From NCBI RefSeq assembly GCF_009931435.1, contig NZ_CP043414.1: a stretch of DNA of 64,000 nucleotides. The stretch is one strand, 5' to 3'. This stretch comes from Escherichia coli (lineage in GTDB: Bacteria; Pseudomonadota; Gammaproteobacteria; Enterobacterales; Enterobacteriaceae). Numbering within the stretch: the stretch's first letter is position 1; every line of letters begins with the position of its first letter. Of the stretch, positions 27,883 to 57,006 are shown in pieces. Made by a program: the position numbers and the translations under genes. Below the pieces are notes generated by a model that saw only the letters and a program-made list of their open reading frames with translations, was not told the origin of the DNA and made no database searches.

Positions 27883-27918
27883 TCTTCAGCCCGACGAACT
27901 GTTTCGCCGGGCTGATTT

Positions 27919-28767
27919 TTAGGGTTCCTGACGTAAATAAATAGCCCGATAACAAATACTCACCAGCACTGCACCGCCGATAATATTACCCAGCATCACC
28001 GGGAGCAGATTGGCGGTAATAAAATGGCTGACCGTCAGTGCCGGAAAATTGTCTGCGCTACTGTGCGCCAGTTGCCAGAAGGAGGTAGGGGCGAAATGGC
28101 GAATGGCAATGGCGAACGGAATCACAAACAAATTGGCGATACAGTGCTCAAAGCCACTGGCGACAAACAGGGTGATGGGCAAAATCATGGCGACGATTTT
28201 GTCGCATAATGAACGTCCGCAATAACTCATCCACAGCGCCAGACAAACCATCAGATTGCACATAATGCCGAGGCTGACTGATTCAGTAAATGTATGATGC
28301 ATTTTGCCCTCGGCGCAGTGTAAAACCGCGACTCCCCACATCGCGTTTTCACTCATCACCAGCCCGGAAAACCAGATTAACAAACTGAAACAGGCAATAC
28401 CTGCCAGATTACCGCAGGCCACCAGAAGTGCATTAATCAGCCATGTTCGCAAGCTAATAACGCCCCGACTTTTTGCCATCACCGTCATTACCGACGAGGT
28501 GAACAGGCTGGTGCCGCAAACCGCCAGCAAAATAAAGCCGAGTGTAAAGCAAAGGCCACCCACCAGATGGGTTAATGCCTGTGAAGACGGGGCATCGGCG
28601 ATAACGGTAAGGTAAAAAGTAAATCCGATCGCCATAAACACGCCTGCGGACATCGCCATTAAAAAGACCGACACTTTGCTGCGGGCAATTTTATGGGCGG
28701 CAATCCGTTCAGCGATTGCCGCTTTTCTGGCGCTCAACTGCAAGTCGAAAGAGAGTTTGTTTCTCAT
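27919..28767 (-). CDS. focB: Formate channel FocB
   Basis: 282 aa FNT-family sequence immediately downstream of hyfR. Confidence 0.9.
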   Translation of the reverse strand: MRNKLSFDLQLSARKAAIAERIAAHKIARSKVSVFLMAMSAGVFMAIGFTFYLTVIADAPSSQALTHLVGGLCFTLGFILLAVCGTSLFTSSVMTVMAKSRGVISLRTWLINALLVACGNLAGIACFSLLIWFSGLVMSENAMWGVAVLHCAEGKMHHTFTESVSLGIMCNLMVCLALWMSYCGRSLCDKIVAMILPITLFVASGFEHCIANLFVIPFAIAIRHFAPTSFWQLAHSSADNFPALTVSHFITANLLPVMLGNIIGGAVLVSICYRAIYLRQEP

Positions 28768-28788
28768 GCATACTCCTGCAAAAACAGA

Positions 28789-30801
28789 TTACAACACCTC
28801 GCGAACCGAGATCCCCAGCCGCTGCATTCGTGACAGCAGCGTGGTGCGCTTCATCCCTAATCGCGTCGCCGCGCCACGGGGCCCGGCAACAATGCCATTG
28901 GTTTCTCGCAATACCTGAACAATGCGCTGACGTTCTTCTTCGTCATTCTCTGGCGTCGTCGGGTGCAGTAACTGCGCCATTGAACTGCGAAGCGCCGAAT
29001 TTTCATTTAACGTCGGCAGTAAACGGCTTTGTCGGACATTAAGATGTAAATTCAGACTGTTACCGCGAGTCAGTAGTACCGCTCGCTCAATCACGTTTTC
29101 CAGCTCGCGCACGTTGCCCGGCCAGTCCCACGACATCAACTGGCGTAGCGCCTCGGTCGGGATGGCGTCAATTGCGCGATTCATATGGCGCGCCATTTTT
29201 TGCGTGAAATGCTTTGCTAAAAGAGGGATATCTTCCGGACGGTCGCGCAGTGGCGGCAGTTCCAGTGGGAAGACATTCAGGCGATAAAAGAGATCGCTGC
29301 GAAACTGGCGATCTTCAACCATTTGCCACAAATCACGGTTGGTGGCGGCAATGACTCTGACATTCACCGGGATCGTTCTACTCCCACCGAGACGCTCAAT
29401 TTCCCGCTCCTGTAATACGCGTAGCAGTTTGGGCTGAAGTTCTAACGGCAGATCGCCAATTTCATCGAGAAATAACGTGCCGCCATCGGCAATTTCAAAA
29501 CGACCACGATGAGTGTTAATCGCGCCAGTAAATGCCCCTTTGTCGTGACCGAATAACTCACTTTCCAGAAGACTGGCGGGGATAGCGGCGCAGTTGATTT
29601 TGACCAGCGGCTTGTCGCGTCGCGGGCTCAGTTGATGGATCGCCCTGGCGATCACCTCTTTGCCGGTTCCGGTTTCACCACAAATCAACACCGTACTGTC
29701 GCTCTTCGCCACAATATCTACCTGCTGGAGTAAATCTTCCATTGCCTGGCTTTGGTAGATAATGTCACCGACGCCCAGATTCGAAAGGAGCTGCTCGCTA
29801 AGCTGGTGGTTTTCTTGCTGCAAGCTTTCCTGCAAATCGGTCATGCTGCGCCAGGCATCGGCATTGCCAACGGCAATAGCGATGCGATCGGCAATATGTT
29901 GTAGTAGCTGGCAGTTTTCCTCACTAAAGAGAGTGGGAGAGGTATGCGCCAGCAACAATGCACCCGGTGTATGGTTGCCAAAGGTGAGCGGTATAAGGAG
30001 CGCAGATTCGCAGCCGTTAGATGCAAGTAAGTGTAATAACGGGTCGCGTTGCCAGAGAAACAGATCGTCTGCACGGTGCGTCAAGGTCGGTTGTCGGGTT
30101 TGTAGCGTTTGTGTCAGCAATACACTTTCGCCAGGCATACAGCGTGGCAGACACGCACAATGTGAGGCAGAAAGATCGCTGCACCACAGGCTGAACTTCT
30201 CGTTCTTTCGATGATCGCCCAGTACCATACTGACTGAAGCCAGACCGAAAAAATGATGGATCTCACGAGCGACGTCAGCGATCAGATCGTCGAGATCAAG
30301 ATGTGACAACACTGCATTAGTGATATCCACCAGTACCCGATGATGATCGCGATCTTTCTCCAGCAAACGCAGCGCCACCTGCTGTTCTTCATCATTGAGC
30401 CATGATTGCAGAACCGGAGTGATTATGTGTGCCAGCCAGTTAAACAGTGTGCAATCCTGGGGAGTAAAACGACTGCCGTGGGTGCGAATAAAGCGTAGCT
30501 CCGCCATTCCACTACTGCCGAGAAGGACGGCGTGGCGCGAATAATCGACCATCTCGCCCTGATACTCTGTTGTTGCCGTCACATCGCTGCCATCATCATG
30601 GTAGCGGTAATAGAAGTTGCTTTTGAGAACATGCAGTTCAATAAGTTGTACCGGGCTGAACGGCGGCGGCAGCGGGATGAAGGCGCGTAATAAAGACGCC
30701 TTGCCGTGTTTCTGCGCTAACCGCTCCGCGAGCATTCCGTTTACCGCTTCAATTGTTATTCCTTGTGGCGGGGCAAACATCGCCTCGTCTGACATAGCCA
30801 T
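28789..30801 (-). CDS. hyfR: Sigma54-dependent activator of the hyf operon
   Basis: 670 aa; GAF-like N-terminus, AAA+ sigma54-interaction core (GETGTGKE, ESELFGH), C-terminal HTH. Confidence 0.92.
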   Translation of the reverse strand: MAMSDEAMFAPPQGITIEAVNGMLAERLAQKHGKASLLRAFIPLPPPFSPVQLIELHVLKSNFYYRYHDDGSDVTATTEYQGEMVDYSRHAVLLGSSGMAELRFIRTHGSRFTPQDCTLFNWLAHIITPVLQSWLNDEEQQVALRLLEKDRDHHRVLVDITNAVLSHLDLDDLIADVAREIHHFFGLASVSMVLGDHRKNEKFSLWCSDLSASHCACLPRCMPGESVLLTQTLQTRQPTLTHRADDLFLWQRDPLLHLLASNGCESALLIPLTFGNHTPGALLLAHTSPTLFSEENCQLLQHIADRIAIAVGNADAWRSMTDLQESLQQENHQLSEQLLSNLGVGDIIYQSQAMEDLLQQVDIVAKSDSTVLICGETGTGKEVIARAIHQLSPRRDKPLVKINCAAIPASLLESELFGHDKGAFTGAINTHRGRFEIADGGTLFLDEIGDLPLELQPKLLRVLQEREIERLGGSRTIPVNVRVIAATNRDLWQMVEDRQFRSDLFYRLNVFPLELPPLRDRPEDIPLLAKHFTQKMARHMNRAIDAIPTEALRQLMSWDWPGNVRELENVIERAVLLTRGNSLNLHLNVRQSRLLPTLNENSALRSSMAQLLHPTTPENDEEERQRIVQVLRETNGIVAGPRGAATRLGMKRTTLLSRMQRLGISVREVL

Positions 30802-30830
30802 CAACAGTCCTTATTAATGAGAAATCCTTC

Positions 30831-31244
30831 TCATGCAATTTTTCTGGCCATCATATAGATGGCCGGTTCCTGCACAATTTCATCCAACAGATGAATGAAT
30901 TGAATGCTACGCGCCTGCCACACAGACGTCGCGTCATCTGCCAGTGGCGCGAATGCCCGGGTCAACAGGGCGGTGTGGCTGGCGTCAATAACAATCTCAC
31001 CAAAGGTCATCACCCCCAGCATCTTACGTCGGGCTTGCTCCTCTTCGACCTGTGCAAGCCAATCTTCGTATTCCGTCTGTGGGCAGCGGAAGGCGACATT
31101 CAGACAATCAATCACGCCAACGTGATGACCGATAGCCAACGAGTAATACATTACCTGGGAGCTGTGTTCCGGCATCTCGTCGCTACTGGCGATAAATTTT
31201 TTTCGCAGCGTCCAGAAAACAATTTCCCCGCACTCCTCAGCCAT
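30831..31244 (-). CDS. hyfJ: Hydrogenase-4 component J
   Basis: 137 aa; overlaps the hyfI stop by 8 nt. Confidence 0.88.
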
Positions 31245-31995
31245 GTAACCCCCGGAGAACGCGAAAGAGTTGCTGAACGATACTATTGAGACGCGGATCG
31301 TCGGCTTCGCGCAACCAGGTGTTAACCCGATTTCCTGTAGGATCGTCGCTTAAATGGCGCAGGAGCCGATCGCAAATTTCTCGCCCCTGACGATAGCCCG
31401 CCAGCCGCCTCGCTTCTCGCTCAATGGCGATACGCTGTGATGGCGGGATCTGCGGCCACAGCGGTTGCATGGTCACCCCGGTGGGATCGCGATAATCCAC
31501 CGCGTGAATCTTCTGTTGTAGCAAACCGAGCGCCACGGCGAAACCGTGAATGGTGGCGGCCGGTGTTGGCGGGCAGCCGGGGATCCAAACATCAATGGGG
31601 ACAATGGTGTCGCTGCCGCCCCAGACGCTGTAGAGATCGTGGAAAATACCGCCGCCGACACCGCACGCGCCGTAGGAAACACAGATTTTATGATCGGGGG
31701 CAGACTCATATGCCCGAAGTGCAGGCATACGCATCGCCCGGGTGACTGCGCCAGTAAATAACAAAATATCGGCGTGACGCGGTGATGAAACAACCTTAAT
31801 GCCAAAACGTTCTGCGTCGAATACTGGTGTGATGGCGGCAAAAATTTCGATTTCGCAGGCGTTGCAGCCGCCGCAATCGACGCGATAAACGTAGGCCGAG
31901 CGACGGATATCCTGTAACAAATGCTGCTTCATCTTTTGCGTTTGTTCGTCCAGCGTGATGGGCTGGCTGACATGTTGCGTAAGCACTGGACTCAT
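31237..31995 (-). CDS. hyfI: Hydrogenase-4 small subunit-like component I
   Basis: 252 aa NuoB-like sequence. Confidence 0.9.
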
Positions 31996-32537
31996 AGCTG
32001 CTCCTTAGCCACCAGCGGTTCATCTGTGTCGTCGTTGATCAGCGTCGCGCGTTGTTTGCATTCCGGGCAGACGCTCGCTTGCGCCCACAACATTTCGCGG
32101 TTTTGTGGTGCATTTTGTTGCTGTGCCAACAGTTCTGCAGCCAGTGCGACGGTTTTTTGCGGGGCAAACGGGCGTTCGCAACGGCTGCAACGTTGTAGCT
32201 GGAACGTCGCGCGGGTATAGAGATCGGCTTTATTGGTGACGGTCAGTTCAAAGTTATTGGTAAGCTGAATGGCTCTGGTCGGGCACACTTCTTCACAACG
32301 TCCGCAGTAAATACAACGCCCCAGATAGAGCTGCCAGGTGCGCGTATTTTGCTGGTCGTCGGTCTGGATAGTCAGCGCATTTGCCGGACAAGCACAGGCG
32401 CAGGCACCGCAGGCAATACATTGGCTGGGCATCAGGTCAGGTTTCCCGCGAAAGCCTGGGCTGACCTCCAGTGGCGCGAAGGGATATTTCACCGTCGCGG
32501 TTCCGGCGCGCATAATAGTTTTCAGTAACTTCAGCAT
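31992..32537 (-). CDS. hyfH: Hydrogenase-4 ferredoxin-like component H
   Basis: 181 aa with two 4Fe-4S Cys clusters. Confidence 0.9.
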
Positions 32538-32546
32538 TTTCTGTCC

Positions 32547-34262
32547 TTACTTCAGCGGCGAACGGTTACGATCAATGCCGTAGCGTTCGATCTCTTTATA
32601 CGGCACGGTTTTTGACTGGCGCTTGCGCACATCAACCAGCGTCACACGGTCGGTACAGGAGTAGCAGGGATCAAGGCTACCGATAATCAGCGGTGCGTCA
32701 GAAACGGTATTGCCGCGCAGCATGTAACGCAGCACTGGCCAGTTGGCGTAGGTGGCGGCACGACAGCGCCAGCGGAACAATTTTTGGTTATCACCGAGCA
32801 TGCTCCAGTGCACGTCTTCACCGCGTGGCGCTTCAACAAAGCCCAGCGCGAATGCGTGAGGTTTATAGCTAAAGCCTTCGGTCAGCAGCGGGGTATCCGG
32901 CATGTTGTCGAGGGCAAATTCCAGCATTGCCAGCGAATCAAACGTCTCTTTGACACGGACCATCACGCGGGAGAAGACATCGCCGCCGGTAAAGGTAAAC
33001 AGCGTTTTTGGAATATTGCCGTAGTCGGCGTAGGGGTGATCAAAGCGCAAATCACGGGCAAAACCACTGCCACGGATCAGCGGCCCTACGGGGCTATAAT
33101 CACGGGCGATTTGTCGGTCGAGAATGCCAATGCCCTGAGTGCGTTGTTCCATATTCGGCGTGGCAAGCAGCATCTCTACCAGCTCCGACACGTCGGCGCG
33201 CATCTCGCGCACCAGTTTCATCGTTTGCAGACGTTGCTCTTTGAGAATATCGCGGCGAACACCACCAATCAGATTCAGACCGTAGGTTTTACGCGACCCG
33301 GTCAGCAATTCCGCCATCGTCATCGACTTTTCCCGCACGCGGAAAAATTGCATAAAACCGGTATCAAAACCAACAAAATGGCAGGAGAGGCCAAGGTTGA
33401 GCAAATGACTATGCAGCCGTTCGACTTCCAGCAGAATCGAGCGAATAGTATGCGCTCGTTGCGGCACCTCAATCCCCAGTGCATTTTCAACCGAGTTGGT
33501 ATAGGCCACACTGTGGGCAAAACCGCAAATCCCACACACGCGGTCCGACAAGAAGGTCACTTCGTTGTAGCCCATCCGCGTTTCTGCCAGTTTCTCCATG
33601 CCGCGATGGACATAAAACAGGCGGTAATCAGCATCGACAATTTGCTCGCCATCCACAAACAAGCGGAAGTGACCTGGTTCATCGGAGGTGATATGCAGCG
33701 GGCCAACAGGGATCACCCGCGCATCGCTGTTGCCCTCGTTGATAAACGGATACGTTTCGGTATCAGTCGTCGGTTCAGGGCGCAGTCGATAATCCATCGC
33801 GTCTTTGCGCAGCGGATGCATGTCTTCCGGCCAGTCATCGGGCAACACCAGGCGACGCTGATCCGGCAGGCCAACCGGAATCAGCCCGTACATATCGCGA
33901 ATTTCTCGCTCGCCCCAGACCGCGGCAGGGACGCGCGGTGTGACTGACGGAAACTCCCTACTGTCGGCATCGACCAGTGCCTTCACCACGATCCAGCATT
34001 TTTCGGCCCCTTCCATTGAAAGGGCATAATAAACCGCGTAATGACCGTTAAGTGTCCGCTCGTCGTTGCCAAACAGGACCGGAAGCCAGCCATCATGTTG
34101 ATAATAAAGATAATGTACAACGTCAGGCAGCAGATTTATTTTCACCGTAATGGTGACCTGTTCAGGCGTTTGTCGCTCTTCATCCAGCACCGCGCCGGGG
34201 AACTGCGTTTTCAGGGCGGCGAGAATCGCTTCGCCACGATTTGACGATGAATTAACGTTCAC
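32547..34262 (-). CDS. hyfG: Hydrogenase-4 large (NiFe) subunit G
   Basis: HycE-like sequence. Start placed at the GTG at 34262, overlapping the hyfF stop by 11 nt; the exact start is uncertain (the ORF track extends to 34307). Confidence 0.85.
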
Positions 34263-35832
34263 TGTGTTTCTCCGAAACAGATGCGGTGCCTGAAGGCAAA
34301 AAATCATGCCAGGTGCTACGTTGTGCAGGCAGGTCGTGCGTCCCTGAGAGGACTATAGTGGAAGCGCCCGCCAGGATCCTGATGACAGGTTGTGGAATAT
34401 GCGTTCCCATCGCCAGCATCATGACCAGCAGAATCACCATTGGCGAGGTGGTCAACCAGCCAAGTTCACCCCGGTTAACGGCCTGCGGCGGTTTCGCCAT
34501 TAACACCCGCGCAGCCATCCGTACCAGGCCCGCCAGCACCAGCGTTAACAGCAATAACAGCAGGACGATAATCAACAGGTGATTACGAGCCAGTCCGGCG
34601 GTAACGGTCATAAATTCGCTAAGAAAAATGTTGAAGGGCGGCATCCCGGCCAGCGCCAGCGCACCGCCGCCAAACAGCACGGCGGTAAATGGCATGATTT
34701 TGAGCATTCCGCAGACGACGTTGAGATCGCGCGTGCCGTACTTGAGCAGTACATTGCCGGAACCGCAGAACAGCAGCGTTTTTGCCAGACTGTGGTTTAA
34801 GGTGTGCAGCAGCGCAGCAAAAATTCCCAGCGGCCCGCCAATGCCTAGCGCCACCGCGACCAGTCCCATGTTCTCCACGCTGGAGTACGCCAGCAGACGC
34901 TTAATGTCCCGCTGTACCAGAATGAAAAATGCCGCCACGGCAACCGACAACATGCCGAAGATGAGCAACAACCGGTTGGGGAAATCGCTGCCGATGGCCT
35001 GGCAAATAATGATGTAATAGCGAATCAGCACCAACAGCGCGCAGTTCAGCAATACGGCGGAGAGCAGGGCGCTGACCGGACTCGGCGCTTCACTGTGAGC
35101 ATCCGGCAGCCAGGCGTGCATGGGAAATAGCCCGGTTTTGGTGCCAAAGCCAATTAGCACAAACACAAAGGCCAACAGCATTAATGTTGGGTCAAGCAAG
35201 GACGATTGCTTAAGAACCTCGCTCCAGAATATCGCCATTTCTGCCTGCGGCATAACGCTGGCGGCGTTGGCGTATACCAGCACGGTACCGAACAGACCAA
35301 AAGCGACACCAACAGTACAAATAATGATGTACTTCCATGCAGCTTCCAGAGATGAACGCTGACCGTAAATGCCTACCAGAAACGCCGAGCTTAAGGTGGT
35401 GGCTTCGATTGCCGCCCACATCACAATCAGGTTATTGCTGGTAACAACCAGCAGCATGGTGAACAAAAACAGATGGAAGAAACCGTAGTAATCGCACAGC
35501 GTAACGGGTGAAATCTCGCCGTGAGCCACTTCATGACGCATGTAGCCAATCGAGTAAACACCGGTGAGAAAGCCAATCACACCAAGAATGGCGAGGAACA
35601 AACCGCCCAGACCATCAATATGAAGCCACAGTCCGGCGGCGAATATTTCTTCCGCATCCGCGGCGGTTTTGACCACCCAGAGTGCCAGAATCAGCAGCAG
35701 TGTGATCCCTAAGCTATGTAATACTGTCACCGTGCGAGTCGCAGAGTGTCCCCGTTTCCGGCAGGCAAAACAGAGCAGCGAAAAAAGCAGCGGCGTGAGC
35801 AGGAGTAAAGCGAACATCACAGAATAACTCAT
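34252..35832 (-). CDS. hyfF: Hydrogenase-4 membrane subunit F (antiporter-like)
   Basis: 526 aa polytopic NuoN/NuoM-like protein. Confidence 0.9.
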
Positions 35833-35836
35833 CTCA

Positions 35837-36487
35837 TTATCCCTTCAGCGCGGTCAAGTTGTTCACGTCCAGCGTGCCGTGGGTACGCCATATTTTTCTT
35901 GCCAGCAACACCATCACAACGACGGCGAAAATGGCGTCGGTAGCGATACCAATTTCCACCAGTTCCGGTGCACGCCAGGCAAGAAGTGCCAGCACCAGAT
36001 GGGAGCCGTTTTCCATCAGGCAGTAACCAAAAATTTGCCGCAGGATATTGCGCTGGCTGACAATGCACAGCAGGCCAAGCAGAAAATGACCTAACGCCAC
36101 CGCCAGCGCCGGTTTCAGCCCGGTAGCCATCGGTAGCTTCACGGGCTGAACGACAAATGCGCAAAGCAGGACAATTAATGCCGCGAGCAATGCCATCATT
36201 GCCGGACCGAATAACGCTTTTTCCGGGAGGTTCTGGGGAATATTTCGTGCAGCGTAAATCATGATTAACGGTACCATCAGTACTTTGGTGATAAAGGCGC
36301 TGGCGGACCAGATCAGCAGTTGCTCTGCGGCGAACAGGCACGAGAGGGTGGCGAAAATAGACACCAGCACCAGCGACTGGCAGGCGTAAAATCCGCATGA
36401 CAGGCGATAGCTTTTGACACTAATCACAAACAGCGATGTCAGCATCATCAGTCCCGCCAGATTATTTACGATCATAGAACCGGTCAT
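35837..36487 (-). CDS. hyfE: Hydrogenase-4 membrane subunit E
   Basis: 216 aa membrane protein. Confidence 0.88.
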
Positions 36488-36498
36488 TCATCATCTCC

Positions 36499-37938
36499 TT
36501 ACTGCAACCAGGTCGCGGCGAATACGCTGGAAATCAGCGACATCACAATCAGTACAATCAACACCAGGCGCATTGATCCTGGCAGCGGTGCGGCATCGGC
36601 GACGGCTTCGCTCGGTTTGCCAGGCACGACGCGACCAAACCAGCGAATAAACCAGGCGAAACTGGCGACCGATTCAATCATCAGCAGAATCATGGCGGGC
36701 AGCAGGATCCAGTACTCCACTGACAACGAAAAACCGGCAGCAAACAGTGGGAATTTACTGAAGAAGCCGTTGAACGGCGGCACGCCAGTAATCGCCAGCG
36801 CGGCCACGCAGAAACCCACGCCTGGCAACGGCAGGGTGTGCAATACGCCACGCAGACGCGGCAACAAGCGCGTGCCGCAGCTGTAACTCAGCGCACCTGC
36901 TACAAGGAAAAACAGGCTTTTAGCGAACGCGTGGTTGACGATGTAGGCGATGCTGCCCTCCAGTGCCAGCCGCGAGCCGAAGATGGAGAGCGACAAGCCG
37001 AAGAACATCCAGCCAAGTTGAGTGATGGTCGACCAGGCCAGCAACCGCTTCATATCCTGCTGCGGCAAATACATCAGAAAGCCGTAAAGAATGGTGACCA
37101 GTGCCATGACCATGCCAACGCCGCCAATCACATGCGGGATATTGCCGCCGTCGATAATGGCGCGGGCAAAAATGTAAACGCCCACTTTCACCATCGATGC
37201 GGCGTGGAGATAGGCGCTGATCGGTGTTGGCGCTTCCATTGCATCCGGTAGCCACGCTTGCATCGGTAGCTGGGCCGATTTTCCCCACGCGGCAAACAGG
37301 ATGCCGCCATAAACCAGATAACGTGCGTCGCCGTGTAACTCGCTCATCGCGCTAAGCGCAAACGTTCCGGTCTGCAAAAACAGCGTGGCGGCGGCAAGAT
37401 ACAACCCCAGCGAACCGATATGAGTGATAAGTAACGCTTTTAGTGCTGAACGTTGCGCTTTATCGCTCTGGTAATAACTGATCAATGCCCAGGAGCAGCC
37501 GCCCGTAATTTCAAAAAACAATAACTGACCGAGCAGCGTCGAGGAGAGTACCAGTCCCGCCATCGCGCCGATAAAAACCAGCAAAAATGCGTAATAACGA
37601 TTCGTGCCGTTATGCGGGTGTTCGCGATTTTTATCCGTCAGATAACCCGTGGAGTAGATCGTGACCAGCAAACCGAGGAACACCACCACAAACAGAATCA
37701 GCGTACTCACGCGATCAATGACCAGGCCAAACAACGCCACATCCCCCACGTTGACCAACGTCAACGTGACGGCAACTTTATCGGCCTGATAAAACGCGGA
37801 GATCAGCGACAACATGCACAGCGTGGTCAGCGCGGCGAACAAAATCCCCCATTCGGCGGCCCGACGTTGTGGCGAAAACGAAACGACCAGTGCGCCGATA
37901 AAAGGCAGCAATAACGTCGTCAGAGCAAGATTTTCCAT
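36499..37938 (-). CDS. hyfD: Hydrogenase-4 membrane subunit D (antiporter-like)
   Basis: 479 aa. Confidence 0.9.
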   Translation of the reverse strand: MENLALTTLLLPFIGALVVSFSPQRRAAEWGILFAALTTLCMLSLISAFYQADKVAVTLTLVNVGDVALFGLVIDRVSTLILFVVVFLGLLVTIYSTGYLTDKNREHPHNGTNRYYAFLLVFIGAMAGLVLSSTLLGQLLFFEITGGCSWALISYYQSDKAQRSALKALLITHIGSLGLYLAAATLFLQTGTFALSAMSELHGDARYLVYGGILFAAWGKSAQLPMQAWLPDAMEAPTPISAYLHAASMVKVGVYIFARAIIDGGNIPHVIGGVGMVMALVTILYGFLMYLPQQDMKRLLAWSTITQLGWMFFGLSLSIFGSRLALEGSIAYIVNHAFAKSLFFLVAGALSYSCGTRLLPRLRGVLHTLPLPGVGFCVAALAITGVPPFNGFFSKFPLFAAGFSLSVEYWILLPAMILLMIESVASFAWFIRWFGRVVPGKPSEAVADAAPLPGSMRLVLIVLIVMSLISSVFAATWLQ

Positions 37939-37954
37939 ATTCCGTCAGTGCTCC

Positions 37955-38902
37955 TTACAGACCGGTTAACCAGAAGACCCAGGCAAGCGCAGCAAGGCTG
38001 AAGCCAAGCCAGGTCACATGGTGAATGAGTAAAAAACGCCCGCGTGCCAGCGTGTTTTCTGCGATAGAGGCCAGAACAAAAATCAGCAAAACCTTGAGCA
38101 GCGTAACGACAAGTGAAGTCAGCAGGCAGGTGAGAGAAAGCTCTTGCGCGCGCCCAAAGGGCAGAAACAGGGCCACAAACAGTGATGCCATCACGACCTG
38201 TTTCAGCCCCAGCCCCAACTTCGCCAGCGCCAGCCCGGCACCGGAATATTCGGTCAGCGGGCCTTCCTGTAATTCCTGTTCTGCTTCAGCAACATCAAAG
38301 GGAATTTTTCCCATCTCAATGAAGCAGGCAAAACCACAGGCCAGTAACGCCAGTACGGTGGTTAGTGGCGAGTTCCAGCCCGTCGCCAGCGTCTTGCTGA
38401 TCATCTCGATATGCGTGGAATCCGCTATCAGCGCCAATACCAGCAGTGAGAGAATGAGCATTGGTTCGACCAGAATGCCGAGCGTCAACTCGCGACTGGC
38501 ACCGACTCCCGCAAACGGGCTTCCGGTATCCAGCCCGGAAAGAGCAAAGAAAAAACGAAACAGGGCAAGAAGATAGATAAGGGTGATCAGATCGCCGCCG
38601 CCCGCAAAAGGGGAAACAGTAATAAATAGTGGTAGGGCCATCGCCAGCACCAGCATGCTGCTGATTAATACCCACGGCATCAGGCGGAACATCAGACCTG
38701 AAGATGTCGGCGCAACTTCCTGGCGTTTAAACAGTTTGTGGATATCGCGATAATCCTGCCAGATCCCCGGTCCGCGGCGGGAGTGCATACGCGCGCGTAT
38801 CTGCCGGGAAATCCCCGTAAAAAGCGGGGTTAGCGCCAGCAGAATCACGGCCTGTGCTAACGCAAAAATGATCAGATATCCGTCGCAAAGAGTTTGTCTC
38901 AT
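37955..38902 (-). CDS. hyfC: Hydrogenase-4 membrane subunit C (NuoH-like)
   Basis: 315 aa from the ATG at 38902 (MRQTLCDGYLIIFALAQ...). Confidence 0.9.
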   Translation of the reverse strand: MRQTLCDGYLIIFALAQAVILLALTPLFTGISRQIRARMHSRRGPGIWQDYRDIHKLFKRQEVAPTSSGLMFRLMPWVLISSMLVLAMALPLFITVSPFAGGGDLITLIYLLALFRFFFALSGLDTGSPFAGVGASRELTLGILVEPMLILSLLVLALIADSTHIEMISKTLATGWNSPLTTVLALLACGFACFIEMGKIPFDVAEAEQELQEGPLTEYSGAGLALAKLGLGLKQVVMASLFVALFLPFGRAQELSLTCLLTSLVVTLLKVLLIFVLASIAENTLARGRFLLIHHVTWLGFSLAALAWVFWLTGL

Positions 38903-38912
38903 GGTGATTTCC

Positions 38913-40931
38913 TTAGACGGCAATAGCGATTAGCAGCACAACCAGTGCGGCGACCACATACAGGCAATAGAGACGAAAGTCGCCGCTTTGCAGATGCTGT
39001 ATTTCTTTGGCCAGCCGTTGGGTGGCGCTCACGATGGGGCGGATCACCCGCTCATCCCAAAAGGGTTCTGTGCTCTGAGCCCTGGCGGTGATGTGCGCGA
39101 GACCTTTGTTCAGCCTCAGCGTAGGGTCGAGCTGTTGTCGTAGACGAAATAGCGCAGAAAAGACCACACGCAGCGGCTGCATCACGCCATTGCCTGACGG
39201 GGCCATCGCATTTTCCCAGCCGTAGCCGCATGCCCAGGCATCTCCTGTGCGACGAAACGCTGCGCGTCGCGAACGACACCACAGCCAGTAAAGGCCAGGC
39301 AGCAAAGGCATCGCCAGTAGTAACAGCAACAGTAATGAGGGAGTGACCCGTGTATGAAACGTGCCGGGGACAAGTGCCATTCCGCTGGCGACAGTGACGG
39401 GAGGGGTATTGGTAAACGCATGGGCAATGTGCATTATCTTCGGTGCCAGCCAACTGGCACTAAGCGCAATGAATACGCAGAGTGCCGCGAGCAGTAGCAT
39501 GGCGACGATCATCGTATTTGGCACTTCCTGTGCCTCTTCAGCGTGTGTACTGCGCGGCGCACCACAGAAAGTAATGCCGTACATTTTGACGAAGCACATT
39601 ACTGCCAGCCCACCAGTGACTGCCAGCATCACCATAGCAATAGGACCCGCAAGTTGTAGCGCTACGGCTTCCACACGACTTAGTGAGAACAGCGACTGCC
39701 AGGTGTACCATTCGCTGATAAAACCATTCAGCGGAGGAATGGCTGATATCGCGAGGCAACCAATCAGGCATGCTGCGGCTGTCCACGGCATCCGTTTTGC
39801 CAGTGCCCCCATTTTTTCCATGTCGTGGGTATGCAAACGCGAAATAATCGCACCCGCGCCGAGAAATAGCAGCCCTTTGAACAGCGCATGGTTGAGCAGA
39901 TGAAACAGTGCGCCGAGCAGTCCAACCACGGTGAGCAGCGGGGCGTGCAGTGACAGACCGACCATGGACACACCGACCGCCAGCAAAATAATGCCGACGT
40001 TTTCGACGGTACTCCAGGCCAGCAGCCGTTTGATATCCTGTTCCGCCAGCGCATACAGCACGCCCAGGAGCGCGGAGATTGCGCCGATCGCCATCACCAG
40101 AATGCCCCACCACAGCGGCAAACCCGTTTGCGCCAGCAGATCCATCGCCACTTTCAGGATGCCGAAAATACCGATTTTGACCATTACGCCAGACATCAAC
40201 GCCGAAGCGTGCGATGGTGCGGCAGGGTGAGCGCGCGGCAACCAGCTGTGCAACGGCATCATCCCGGCTTTCGCGCCAAAACCGAAGAAGGCCAGCAGGA
40301 ACACCGCCGACGCCAGCCCCGGAGAAAGTGAAAGCGTGCGGAAACTGGCAAAATCGAGGTTGCCGCTTTCGCGCCACATCAGCAAGAAGGCAATCATAAT
40401 CAGCACCGATCCGGCGTGGGCGATAAAAAAGTAGAGCATGCCAGCGTTGATTGACGTTTTATCCTGCCTGGCAATGACCAGAAACCAGGAAGACAGCGAC
40501 ATCATTTCAAACAGCACGATGAACCAAAAAGCGTTGTCCATCACCAGCAGGGCAACCATCGATGCGATGAAAAGATTCATAAAGAAGCCCATCGCCGCCG
40601 CGCCTTTGCCCTCGTATTCGCGCATATAAGTCAATGAATAGAGCGAACAAACCACCACCAGCAAGGAGATAACCAGCACCATAAATGCCGAGAGGCTATC
40701 CATTCGCAGGGTTAAATCGGCAAAGTCAAAAGGCGTGGCAAAACGGGCGACTAAAGTTACGCCTGCATGTAATTGCGTAATTCCGCTGATGATGCCAATC
40801 GCGCCGCCCACCAGCGATGTGATGCCGGAAAGCTTAATAGCCAGTCTGTCCAGACCGAGTAAAAACAGCGAAGCCAGACTGGCAAACAGATAGAGGATCA
40901 GCGACCAGATTAATAATTGCAGGGCATCCAT
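38913..40931 (-). CDS. hyfB: Hydrogenase-4 membrane subunit B (antiporter-like)
   Basis: 672 aa NuoL-like protein; start overlaps the hyfA stop. Confidence 0.92.
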   Translation of the reverse strand: MDALQLLIWSLILYLFASLASLFLLGLDRLAIKLSGITSLVGGAIGIISGITQLHAGVTLVARFATPFDFADLTLRMDSLSAFMVLVISLLVVVCSLYSLTYMREYEGKGAAAMGFFMNLFIASMVALLVMDNAFWFIVLFEMMSLSSWFLVIARQDKTSINAGMLYFFIAHAGSVLIMIAFLLMWRESGNLDFASFRTLSLSPGLASAVFLLAFFGFGAKAGMMPLHSWLPRAHPAAPSHASALMSGVMVKIGIFGILKVAMDLLAQTGLPLWWGILVMAIGAISALLGVLYALAEQDIKRLLAWSTVENVGIILLAVGVSMVGLSLHAPLLTVVGLLGALFHLLNHALFKGLLFLGAGAIISRLHTHDMEKMGALAKRMPWTAAACLIGCLAISAIPPLNGFISEWYTWQSLFSLSRVEAVALQLAGPIAMVMLAVTGGLAVMCFVKMYGITFCGAPRSTHAEEAQEVPNTMIVAMLLLAALCVFIALSASWLAPKIMHIAHAFTNTPPVTVASGMALVPGTFHTRVTPSLLLLLLLAMPLLPGLYWLWCRSRRAAFRRTGDAWACGYGWENAMAPSGNGVMQPLRVVFSALFRLRQQLDPTLRLNKGLAHITARAQSTEPFWDERVIRPIVSATQRLAKEIQHLQSGDFRLYCLYVVAALVVLLIAIAV

Positions 40932-41548
40932 TAGCGTTGCTCCTGAGTGAGTGAAAGGGGATCCTCCCCGCCATTGGCAAACCAGCTTGCGGCAAGGCGC
41001 TGTTTTTCTTTCATCTGACGTTGCAGGCTATCGTCGGTGATCAGACGTAACGCATGATTCGGGCAAGCGCGAACGCAGGCCGGACCTTCTGGCAAGAAAT
41101 CACACAGGTCGCATTTCACCGCGACGGTCTGGACACCCGGTTCCCAGCGCAGCAAAGCATGTTGGGTCGGCGCGTTTTCTTCGCCGTCTTTGAGTGAGCC
41201 GTCAGCCTGAAAAACATATTGCGCAGGGGCATTCACCGGACGGCTTCCTGAAGCGCTGATTGCGCCAAATGGGCAGACCACGGCGCAAAGCTTGCAGCCA
41301 ATACAGAGGCTTTCGTTGAGTTGGATCGCATCATCTCTCTGGGAGATGGCATTGACCGGGCAGACCTGCAGGCAAGGGGCTTCCTCACAGTGATGACACA
41401 CGACAGGGGCAGTGAGTGTTGACGTCTTCGCCAGGGCCAGGCGCGGGTGTTGCTGTAAACCTTGCGTTTTATGCACGTCCGAACAGGCAGCGAGACAGGT
41501 ATTACATCCTGTACACCACAGTGGTTCGGCCACCACAAAGCGGTTCAT
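40931..41548 (-). CDS. hyfA: Hydrogenase-4 ferredoxin-type component A
   Basis: 205 aa from the ATG at 41548 (MNRFVVAEPLWCTGCNTC...), with 4Fe-4S Cys motifs. Confidence 0.9.
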   Translation of the reverse strand: MNRFVVAEPLWCTGCNTCLAACSDVHKTQGLQQHPRLALAKTSTLTAPVVCHHCEEAPCLQVCPVNAISQRDDAIQLNESLCIGCKLCAVVCPFGAISASGSRPVNAPAQYVFQADGSLKDGEENAPTQHALLRWEPGVQTVAVKCDLCDFLPEGPACVRACPNHALRLITDDSLQRQMKEKQRLAASWFANGGEDPLSLTQEQR

Positions 41549-41588
41549 GTCGGCTCCTTGAAAATGATATGAAACATTGCATTTCATA

Positions 41589-41606
41589 TTGCATAAAGGA
41601 TGCCAG
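41589..41606 (-). promoter_or_regulatory. Sigma54 (-24/-12) promoter of the hyf operon
   Basis: Minus-strand reading cTGGCATcctttATGCAa with GG-N10-GC spacing, about 40 bp upstream of the hyfA ATG; consistent with the HyfR enhancer-binding protein encoded in the same operon. Confidence 0.55.
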
Positions 41607-41800
41607 TCTGATTAATTTAATATATTCAATAAGTTATGTGTTAACTGGATTCTGAACGGTACAAAAATGATGGTCATTAACGTTCAGCAATAAATGGATT
41701 CGACACCCGTGTCGCAGGGGAAAGCGAGAATGTGATCTTGATCACGAGAAGTGAGGTGTGCTGGCCGCAAGCGCAGCCAGCACTGAATGGAGCAAAGTAA

Positions 41801-42271
41801 TCAGGCGTGTTCTTTCAGCCAGTTCAGCACAACGTCGTGGTGATTGCTGGTTTTGAAATCGTCAAAGACATGTTCGATTTTGCCATCAGCGTCAATCAGG
41901 AAGCTGATGCGATGAATACCATCGTAGGTTTTGCCCATGAAGGACTTTTCACCCCAGACGCCGAATTGTTCGCACACCTGGTGGTCCTCATCAGACAGGA
42001 GCGTAAAGTTAAGCAGCTCTTTTTCCGCAAAACGGGAGAGTTTTTCGGGTTTATCGGTGCTGATACCCAGCACATCAACGCCCGCTTTTTTCAATTCATC
42101 CATGTTATCGCGTAAGCCGCAGGCCTGTACGGTACAGCCGGGAGTCATGGCTTTTGGGTAAAAATAAACCAGAACACGCTGTCCCTGGAAGTCGGTCAAA
42201 TTAACTTGTTCTCCGTCTTGATCCGGCAAGCTAAATTTCGGTGCGATATCACCGGCTTTCAGTGGATTCAT
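41801..42271 (-). CDS. bcp: Thiol peroxidase Bcp (peroxiredoxin Q type)
   Basis: 156 aa, MNPLKAGDIAPKFSLPDQDG... Confidence 0.95.
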   Translation of the reverse strand: MNPLKAGDIAPKFSLPDQDGEQVNLTDFQGQRVLVYFYPKAMTPGCTVQACGLRDNMDELKKAGVDVLGISTDKPEKLSRFAEKELLNFTLLSDEDHQVCEQFGVWGEKSFMGKTYDGIHRISFLIDADGKIEHVFDDFKTSNHHDVVLNWLKEHA

Positions 42272-49687: not shown

Positions 49688-49767
49688 GTAGGCCTGATAA
49701 GACGCGTGAGCGTCGCATCAGGCATCGTTCACCATTGCCGGATGCGGCATTAACGCCTTATCCGGCC
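49688..49767. repeat. REP/BIME cluster
   Basis: GGCCTGATAAGACGCGTGAGCGTCGCATCAGGC ... GCCGGATGCGGCATTAACGCCTTATCCGGCC palindromic units between convergent ypfH and ypfN. Confidence 0.7.
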
Positions 49768-55305: not shown

Positions 55306-57006
55306 TTACATTAGCTGGCTTTCCTCACCCTCCGCAGAGCGAAAGCTAATACTCACTAACGTGCCGCCACCGGAAGGTTGTGAAAAAGTCAGCGTTCCAC
55401 CCAGTCGTTCCGCGCGTTCGCGCATAATATTCAGACCATAGTGACCTTCGGGTTCTTTCGGTTCTCCGATGCCAATCCCGTTATCACGGATATAGACTGT
55501 GTGATTGCCGTCCGGCGCGGTGACGCAACTAACGGCTATTTCGCTGGCGTTGGCGTGCTTCATCGCATTGAGTACCGCTTCGCGAATAATTTGCAACAAA
55601 TGCACCTGCATTTGCGCATCCAGCGCCAGTGTTGGCAGACGGCAGTCGAGAGTCAGTTTTGCGCTGGTTTGATTTTGTAACGTATCCAGCATTTCCCGCA
55701 ACGCGGAGGGAAGATCCGCTTGCTGCAGCGTCAGGCGGAACGTGGTCAACAGCTCGCGTAACTGTCGATAAGCATCATTCAATGCCTGGGAGAAATCGGC
55801 CATGATATTTTGTGCGGTGGCGTTATCTTCCGGTATCGAACGTTTAAGTAACGTCAACTGGATACGTAAGTAAGAAAGCACCTGGGCCAGCGAATCATGT
55901 AATTCCCGTGCGATGGTGGCACGTTCTTCCATCAACAGTAACTGCTGAAAATGCTTCTGCGCCTGATTAAAGTACAAACCGCGCCCCAGCATCGACGAAA
56001 CGCTGTTAAGCAGCGGTTCTGATGATGACACGTGGCTATTTTGCCAGTGCAGTTCGCCGTAAACCGTCTCTTGCATCGTTACCGGTAAAATCTGCATCGG
56101 CAATTCGGGGTTTGGTTTCCCTTCACTAATCCGCCAGTTTTCACCGACATTCAACTCCAGATATTCAGCCGCTTCATTGTCGCGAACAATCTGCAAAATA
56201 TGGCGGAAACAATGCACATCTATCTGGCTGGTGTTCAGCGCCTGCGAACACTGATACAACACCTCCAGGCGACGCTTGGCCTCGTGGAGATCACGGGTTT
56301 TTTCTTCTACTGACGCTTCCAGCGAACGATACAATTTATGCAGCTCGCTCGACATCTGGTTAAAGGTTTTGGCCAACAGTCCCAGCTCATTGGGCAGACT
56401 TGTATCCAGCGGCGGCGAATCGAACTGGCCGTGTTCAATACGCTGACTGGCGGTAACCAGCTGATTCAGCGGGGCAACCACCTGATGGCGTATGCGGCGC
56501 AGAGTAAAAAAGACCAGCGTGAAAATACCGATGCCGCCAGCCAGGGAGATCGCCACCACCAGCAGCATTTTGCGTTCGGCGTAGTGCTGTAAAGCCAGCA
56601 CGAACAGGTCTATCTGATTAACATAATTATTAATATTGGCCTGATACCACGGCAAATCGCCCTTGCTGAGCCGATTATTCATCTCCAGCCAGTTGGCATT
56701 CAGATGCGCATAGCGGGTTTTTACTGCCTCTGGCACATACCAGACGTTGAGATTGGTTAACACCGGTGAGTGCAGTGCCTGTTGGAACAGTTGGCGATGC
56801 GCATTGAGTTGTGGACTGCCGCTTTGCAAGTCGTAGCCCAGGCGGTAACTCTGCATACGCAACGATCCGGCAATATTGATAGCCTCAGCGTCGCGCAAAC
56901 TGCTCGCCAGAGTTAGCAGTGCGATACCCGTGGAAAGAATCGACAGCAGCACAATGTAAAAAAAGGCCCGGGCCAGACTGGCCGAGACGGGGCGTTTAAC
57001 AATCAC
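55306..57006 (-). CDS. narQ: Nitrate/nitrite sensor histidine kinase NarQ
   Basis: 566 aa from the GTG at 57006 (MIVKRPVSASLARAFFYIVLL...). Confidence 0.93.
   Translation of the reverse strand: MIVKRPVSASLARAFFYIVLLSILSTGIALLTLASSLRDAEAINIAGSLRMQSYRLGYDLQSGSPQLNAHRQLFQQALHSPVLTNLNVWYVPEAVKTRYAHLNANWLEMNNRLSKGDLPWYQANINNYVNQIDLFVLALQHYAERKMLLVVAISLAGGIGIFTLVFFTLRRIRHQVVAPLNQLVTASQRIEHGQFDSPPLDTSLPNELGLLAKTFNQMSSELHKLYRSLEASVEEKTRDLHEAKRRLEVLYQCSQALNTSQIDVHCFRHILQIVRDNEAAEYLELNVGENWRISEGKPNPELPMQILPVTMQETVYGELHWQNSHVSSSEPLLNSVSSMLGRGLYFNQAQKHFQQLLLMEERATIARELHDSLAQVLSYLRIQLTLLKRSIPEDNATAQNIMADFSQALNDAYRQLRELLTTFRLTLQQADLPSALREMLDTLQNQTSAKLTLDCRLPTLALDAQMQVHLLQIIREAVLNAMKHANASEIAVSCVTAPDGNHTVYIRDNGIGIGEPKEPEGHYGLNIMRERAERLGGTLTFSQPSGGGTLVSISFRSAEGEESQLM

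Follow-up and report, generated by a model that had tools for sequence, protein, structure and literature searches.

A sigma-54 -24/-12 promoter element lies directly in front of hyfA in a 64,000-nucleotide stretch of Escherichia coli DNA (the window), and it is almost certainly PhyfA, the promoter through which the hydrogenase-4 (hyf) operon of E. coli is controlled by sigma-54. Neither PhyfA nor its sigma-54 dependence and activators are new: a 2002 publication described them, and genome-wide work of 2015 and 2021 confirmed them again. The minus strand from 41606 to 41589 reads CTGGCATCCTTTATGCAA, that is TGGCAT-N5-ATGCA (TGGCAT-CCTTT-ATGCA), with a gap of 10 nt between GG and GC, which is the canonical sigma-54 spacing. 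The original prediction had described this motif on the minus strand with correct GG/GC spacing, and direct reading of the sequence bears it out; it had also placed the motif about 40 bp upstream of the hyfA start, and the measured distance from the 3' end of the motif (41590) to the hyfA ATG (41548) is 41 nt. The motif is intergenic and in the sense orientation. Its fit to the consensus TGGCACGNNNNTTGCW is moderate, with three mismatches, all at non-core positions; the deviations include T rather than C after TGGCA and A rather than T two bases before the -12 GC (ATGCA as against TTGCA). The element, the other features of the control region and the genes that the promoter serves are as follows.

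41590-41606, minus strand: sigma-54 -24/-12 promoter element CTGGCATCCTTTATGCA, with GG at 41604-41603 and GC at 41592-41591.
41578-41579, minus strand: expected start of transcription, 30-31 nt ahead of the hyfA ATG.
41559-41554, minus strand: Shine-Dalgarno sequence AAGGAG, read from the sequence.
41624-41636, minus strand: predicted IHF-like site TAACTTATTGAAT, which apart from one mismatch is complementary to WATCAANNNNTTR, centred at about -52 (alignment and scan).
41661-41676, minus strand: conserved block TGACCATCATTTTTGT, centred at about -90 (alignment).
41701-41714, minus strand: candidate UAS palindrome CGACACGGGTGTCG of the FhlA/HyfR type (CGWCA-N4-TGWCG), a perfect inverted repeat centred at about -130.
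41731-41746, minus strand: CRP-type site CGTGATCAAGATCACA (TGTGA-N6-TCACA with one mismatch), centred at about -160 (pattern scan).
41548-40931, minus strand: hyfA, a 205-aa 4Fe-4S ferredoxin-type subunit (annotation; Pfam Fer4 domains).
28789-30801, minus strand: hyfR, the cognate sigma-54 enhancer-binding protein, 670 aa (Pfam).
27919-28767, minus strand: focB, the last gene of the cluster (annotation; Pfam Form_Nir_trans).
27919-41548, minus strand: the cluster served by the promoter, hyfABCDEFGHIJ-hyfR-focB (annotation and tblastn).

The element has a direct counterpart in K-12. A 16-nt core, TGGCATCCTTTATGCA, is identical in K-12 and in the window; the K-12 site is ATGGCATCCTTTATGCA, and the sole difference within the 17-mer is its first base, A in K-12 and C here. 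At this position (41606) most E. coli, K-12 among them, have A and a minority have C, which is the commonest base at the equivalent position among bound sites; the PWM described below scores the K-12 site at 13.5 bits and the window site at 15.1 bits. Throughout the bcp-hyfA spacer there are 7 differences from K-12 in 281 aligned bases, six of them outside the 17-mer and none in the conserved blocks. K-12 PhyfA (hyfAp; OS23; Skibinski et al. 2002) therefore shares with the window its locus between bcp and hyfA, its core and its distance to the ATG, and the UAS, the -90 block, the IHF-like site, the leader and the Shine-Dalgarno sequence are all identical.

In Table 1 of Bonocora et al. 2015, ATGGCATCCTTTATGCA upstream of hyfA stands as OS23, a ChIP-seq peak of sigma-54, with a FAT of 16, a PSSM of 10.5, a predicted TSS 31 bp before hyfA and the flag 'C', which stands for experimentally confirmed in EcoCyc (PMC4591121). 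The gSELEX experiments of Shimada et al. 2021 gave the bcp/hyfA spacer 92% of the maximum with RpoN holoenzyme alone, and with NtrC it was the highest peak at 100% (PMC8743547). In a statement of PMC7658346 that cites Skibinski et al. 2002, FhlA regulates E. coli hyf transcription. The reading of the element as the sigma-54 promoter of hyfA is supported by the identity of its core with OS23 and by the conservation across genera described below, and the further claim that it is consistent with the established sigma54-dependent control of hydrogenase-4 agrees with the EcoCyc flag of OS23 and with the regulation by FhlA (PMC7658346).

By sequence alone, the hyfA motif is not above chance across the 64 kb and is distinctive only in its context. 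The pattern TGGCA-N7-TGCA had one exact match in the window with 1.24 expected, and sequences with three or fewer mismatches to TGGCACGNNNNTTGCW numbered 113 with 131 expected. A sigma-54 PWM was built from 41 other ChIP-bound intergenic sense sites (Bonocora et al.), with hyfA excluded. The hyfA site ranked first of about 128,000 window positions at 15.1 bits, a score that 38% of shuffled windows also reached. The scores of the bound sites themselves (n = 41) spanned 8.9-21.7 bits, the median being 16.1, and the hyfA site lies within this range, 26th of 42 when it is counted itself. With the Barrios 186-promoter matrix (printed in PMC7658346) the hyfA site was seventh in the window, and 3.9 such sites are expected per window. 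The sense strand of the 252-nt bcp-hyfA spacer, however, is expected to hold about 0.001 such sites, and shuffling the spacer itself produced one in 69 of 100,000 trials. Thus, the hyfA motif is convincing because of its position and the external evidence and not because of its score.

Several other matches in the window were considered. The second-best PWM match, ATGGCGCAGTTACTGCA (28964-28980, minus strand; 14.2 bits), lies at the 3' end of hyfR in the sense orientation, about 197 nt before the focB ATG. Since no hyfR or focB entry was found in the supplementary tables of Bonocora et al., ATGGCGCAGTTACTGCA is probably a chance match. The PWM matches inside hyf genes (28964, 30362, 34772 and 37102) were treated as chance. 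In narQ (56326-56342, plus strand), the K-12 intragenic antisense sigma-54 ChIP site IA19 (ACGGTACAATTTATGCA) reads ACGATACAATTTATGCA in this strain; its -24 GG is broken and thus the sigma-54 binding site has probably been lost.

The conservation of the promoter was analyzed outside and within E. coli. A peptide-pattern scan of species-representative genomes with HyfA gave 45 loci, none of them from Escherichia or Shigella, and the diversity of E. coli was covered separately through E. coli genomes. By tblastn, 35 of the 45 loci carry the full hyfB-G set including hyfDEF, seven are hyc-type and three are other (a Pectobacterium locus without hyfE and hyfF matches and two short contigs). The hyfA-excluded PWM was run over the 400 nt that precede each hyfA start. 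Exactly one strong -24/-12 motif (10.9-19.3 bits) was present in each of 31 hyf-type loci, a count that overstates the number of independent events, as the compared loci are phylogenetically related. The second-best score in these loci was at most 8.6 bits, and it was below 6 in 27 of the 31. The motif lies 38-83 nt before the hyfA ATG, and 136 nt before it in one case (Uliginosibacterium). Its position and orientation are kept although the spacers are otherwise unalignable. The loci with the motif belong to Citrobacter, Kosakonia, Atlantibacter, Sodalis, Dickeya, Morganella, Providencia, Pectobacterium and Uliginosibacterium, and to Photobacterium and Burkholderiaceae MAGs; one Uliginosibacterium MAG (L031) has a weak, distant match only. 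Four hyf-type loci were without the motif, three of them alphaproteobacterial (L034, L040 and L049) and one a Burkholderiaceae MAG (L039). The hyc-type loci had no -24/-12 motif in the 400 nt before the start of the hyfA equivalent, as is to be expected with a hyc promoter that sits before hycA. The S5 table of Bonocora et al. independently scores conservation of the site in Yokenella, Pectobacterium, Dickeya, Brenneria and Proteus (PMC4591121).

Within E. coli, a 92-nt promoter stretch is kept in all 4297 hyf-bearing genomes, with an identity of at least 95% in 4283, and a 36-mer (-25 to +9) is 100% identical in 3742 of the 4297. The near-invariance of the promoter, UAS and IHF site in E. coli, together with their conservation across genera, speaks for purifying selection and hence for a use in some condition. 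One E. coli genome (Res13-Lact-PEB14-36) has a 14-bp tandem duplication, CATCCTTTATGCAA, inside the promoter, equivalent to 41589-41602. The first copy in this allele is an intact TGGCAT-N5-ATGCA that lies 14 bp farther from the start region and the ATG, and the identity band of the allele holds 2 of the 4297 genomes.

The elements upstream of the promoter were identified from an alignment of E. coli, Citrobacter and Kosakonia and from pattern scans over the 32 loci carrying a sigma-54 motif. The palindrome CGWCA-N4-TGWCG, with one mismatch or none, was found between -83 and -159 in 31 of the 32 loci, with 0.43 expected. The same pattern is matched by CGTCAAAACTGACG about 105 nt upstream of the fdhF start in K-12, and the published FhlA matrix shares its outline (PMC7658346). 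For these three reasons CGACACGGGTGTCG was assigned as a UAS of the FhlA/HyfR type, and it is a candidate site for HyfR or FhlA. Between the UAS and the -24 region, the IHF consensus WATCAANNNNTTR is matched by ATTCAATAAGTTA with one mismatch at about -52, which predicts an IHF site; within it AAC-N4-TTGA is invariant in the alignment of E. coli, Citrobacter and Kosakonia. An IHF-consensus match in the same orientation is centred between -49.5 and -62.5 in 24 of the 32 loci, and a match anywhere in the 220-nt upstream stretch occurs in 26 of the 32 with 8.75 expected.

The CRP-type site at about -160 has a narrower distribution. It is present in 7 of the 32 loci (0.27 expected) and is confined to the Escherichia/Citrobacter/Kosakonia group, in which the four Citrobacter loci carry, at the same position, TGTGA-N6-TCACA in perfect form, and the Kosakonia version differs by one mismatch. 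Self and colleagues reportedly found in 2004 that CRP is required for hyf expression. The best FhlA-matrix match in the spacer, TGATCAAGATCACA (9.8 bits), was not called a UAS, because its GTGA...TCAC arms fit CRP better and because the perfect Citrobacter TGTGA-N6-TCACA stands at the same place. The block at about -90, TGACCATCAYTTTTGT (41676-41661), is nearly invariant across Escherichia, Citrobacter and Kosakonia and resembles CGACATCATCGACA of the K-12 hyc-hyp UAS region; it may, on account of this likeness, represent a second FhlA/HyfR half-site in degenerate form. An inverted repeat of 10 nt, CTGAACGTTA / TACCGTTCAG, flanks the block (41652-41687) in E. coli only. The block was rejected as an FNR site or Fur box, the by-eye matches being partial and limited to E. 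coli, with the left half not kept in Citrobacter and Kosakonia. Myers et al. 2013 list an FNR site at hyfA that was predicted but unbound.

This arrangement is similar to that of other sigma-54 promoters. The FhlA-dependent promoters of fdhF, hycA, hypA and hydN have TGGCAY-N5-WTGCW -24/-12 elements, the upstream palindrome CGWCA-N4-TGWCG (in fdhF, CGTCAAAACTGACG) and an activator with GAF, AAA+ and HTH domains, and like hyf they are all sigma-54 ChIP peaks. Unlike the FhlA regulon, hyf is linked to an activator gene of its own, hyfR. The centre of the hyf palindrome is G-rich (GGG), whereas that of the FhlA regulon is A/T-rich, and the hyf palindrome scores 5.3 bits with the FhlA matrix. In a CRP-pattern scan covering the hyf loci, hyf also has the CRP-type site at about -160. 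Classical IHF-assisted sigma-54 promoters, such as nifH and Pu, have, as hyf does, a UAS at -100 to -160, then an IHF site and then the -24/-12 element; there is no architectural difference between this class and hyf, for which the IHF site is predicted from sequence.

The likely mechanism follows the general scheme for sigma-54. RNA polymerase with sigma-54 would sit on the GG (-24) and GC (-12) between 41604 and 41591 in a stable closed complex that could not open the DNA alone, a behaviour that is general for sigma-54 (PMC4591121) and presumably holds for PhyfA. A hexameric AAA+ activator, either HyfR or its paralogue FhlA, would bind the palindrome CGACACGGGTGTCG about 130 bp upstream, and bending of the AT-rich spacer by IHF at the site near -52 would bring this activator to the polymerase. 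The GAFTGA loop of the activator would then touch sigma-54, and ATP hydrolysis would lead to the open complex, with transcription beginning about 30 nt before hyfA. Control by carbon source is probably added through the CRP-type site at about -160. The sequence analysis showed the anatomy of the region, its match to the bound K-12 site, its cross-genus conservation and the domains of HyfR, and holoenzyme occupancy was shown by others; we infer both the protein at each upstream site and the exact start in this strain.

The expected start is given by two estimates that differ by one base. Position 41578 corresponds to the start 30 bp upstream of hyfA that Skibinski and colleagues are said to have mapped by primer extension in 2002, and which we take to apply here; this start agrees with the geometry of the -24/-12 element in the window. 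With +1 at 41578 or 41579, the GC falls at -14/-13 or -13/-12 and the GG at -26/-25 or -25/-24. Position 41579 was obtained from the rule of Bonocora et al., with the TSS 19 bp after the motif centre and 31 bp before hyfA. The ORF list opens the hyfA frame 13 codons earlier, at an ATG at 41587 that lies upstream of the expected start; the annotated start is 41548.

No sigma-70-like -35/-10 pair was found in 41500-41850 and no terminator was found in the bcp-hyfA spacer, each at the threshold used. A structured leader or attenuator was rejected, as the 44 nt from 41578 to 41535 (the 30-nt 5' UTR and the first 14 nt of hyfA) are less structured than shuffled sequences (z = +1.7). The Rfam search of 41300-42000 gave no known RNA family above threshold, and PhrS was rejected as a sub-threshold match (E = 0.59). 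In the whole window a single Rfam family passed the threshold, namely naRNA4, a REP-derived nucleoid-associated RNA at 49691-49767 on the minus strand, with 89 bits compared to a gathering score of 59.5.

A perfect 8-7-8 dyad, ATATGAAA-N7-TTTCATAT, occupies 41567-41589, with the expected start, 41578, at its centre. The five E. coli sequences that were compared all have it unchanged, and it is not kept in Citrobacter or Kosakonia. The dyad could be an operator or could be due to chance. There is a slim chance that the control region holds two cis-elements for which no description was found, the TGACCATCAYTTTTGT block at about -90 and this E. coli-specific dyad.

Gene names were taken from the RefSeq annotation of the 100%-identical strain WL297 record, and the hyf genes were mapped by tblastn. 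The gene order is gcvR-bcp, then hyfABCDEFGHIJ-hyfR-focB, and then yfgO. The original prediction had the operon ending with hyfR, which is not correct, as the last gene is focB (27919-28767, minus strand). It was right, however, in naming hyfR a sigma54 enhancer-binding protein. HyfR is intact and contains Pfam GAF, Sigma54_activat (E = 5e-75), AAA_lid_14 and HTH_8 domains, with the Walker A motif GETGTGKE at residue 375, GAFTGA at residue 422 and the Walker B motif DEI at residue 446. These domains and motifs identify it as a bona fide bacterial enhancer-binding protein. According to the 2002 work of Skibinski and colleagues, HyfR and FhlA are both activators of the hyf operon, and sigma-54 and FhlA are reportedly needed for hyf expression.

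A 701-nt query around the site matched 5424 of 5426 complete E. coli genomes, of which about 1127 (~21%) are without hyfABCDEFGHIJR-focB. In the genomes that lack hyf, yfgO comes straight after bcp, and the spacer between them, of about 45 bp, is a different one. The segment that is present or absent is 13.8 kb long, at about 27890-41752 of the window. Its left junction is just past the bcp hairpin, and thus the CRP-type site, the UAS and the promoter belong to the hyf segment and not to bcp. The hairpin, GTGCTGGCTGCGCTTGCGGCCAGCAC, is GC-rich, lies directly after bcp at 41758-41783 and has no T-tract; it is common to strains with and without hyf, and the left edge of the insertion is marked by it.

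Two other explanations of the site were weighed against the reading as PhyfA, and both are improbable to different degrees. In one, the -24/-12 match is fortuitous and hyf is transcribed from a sigma-70 or other minor-sigma promoter in the spacer, or by read-through from bcp. Motifs of equal quality do arise about once per 64 kb by chance, a weak gSELEX peak of another minor-sigma holoenzyme falls in the same bcp-hyfA spacer (PMC5493296), and bcp, on the same strand, lies no more than 252 nt upstream, with a hairpin (41758-41783) that has no T-tract. However, ChIP-seq and gSELEX put the sigma-54 holoenzyme on the exact sequence (PMC4591121, PMC8743547), 41500-41850 gave no sigma-70-like pair, the motif keeps its position and orientation in 31 hyf-type loci, and the promoter region is part of the hyf-specific insertion rather than of bcp, all of which make a fortuitous match extremely improbable. 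In the other, hyf belongs to the formate regulon as a target of FhlA only and HyfR is irrelevant at PhyfA in vivo, which we consider unlikely. The UAS palindrome is of the same type as the FhlA site of fdhF and related sequences are found by the published FhlA matrix, but hyfR is intact and operon-linked here, and deletion of hyfR nearly abolishes FHL-2 activity in Pectobacterium. The sequence methods used do not distinguish HyfR sites from FhlA sites. The reported findings of Skibinski and colleagues from 2002 fall on both sides: inactivation of chromosomal hyfR is said to have had no effect on hyfA-lacZ while fhlA was required, but multicopy hyfR reportedly gave about 1000-fold induction of hyf, and purified HyfR is said to bind the hyf promoter region.

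A third possibility refines the identification of the element as PhyfA rather than opposing it, and it can be entertained with some seriousness, if tentatively: sigma-54 holoenzyme does bind the site, which in E. coli is poised and yet in effect silent. In its details, which are held just as tentatively, the closed complex is present, hyfR is hardly expressed, hydrogenase-4 is not made and the site has little or no physiological role. Sigma-54 binds DNA in a transcriptionally inactive form by design (PMC4591121), and holoenzyme binding at PhyfA need not bring much transcription with it. Self et al. 2004 use the words 'silent operon' for hyf in their title, hyf is reported to be poorly expressed or 'silent' in laboratory E. 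coli (PMC7384014), and because of this poor expression PhyfA may be mostly poised and not firing. Replacement of the hyf promoter by Phyc or T5 gave no Hyd-4 hydrogen production (PMC7654741), and about 21% of complete E. coli genomes do without the cluster. On the other side, the promoter, UAS and IHF site show essentially no variation among 4297 E. coli genomes and are kept in other genera too, and the homologous system of Pectobacterium and Proteus is active and dependent on HyfR or on FhlA and RpoN.

The sigma-54 promoter of hyfA was thus recognised correctly from sequence alone; the motif by itself would fail a chance test. If the dyad at +1 is an operator for a repressor, it could help to account for the 'silent' state of hyf in E. 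coli, given that its homologues in Pectobacterium and Proteus are active. The cross-genus map of the control region, with its CRP-type site, UAS, conserved block, IHF-type site and -24/-12 element, could guide efforts to activate the cryptic E. coli hydrogenase-4.
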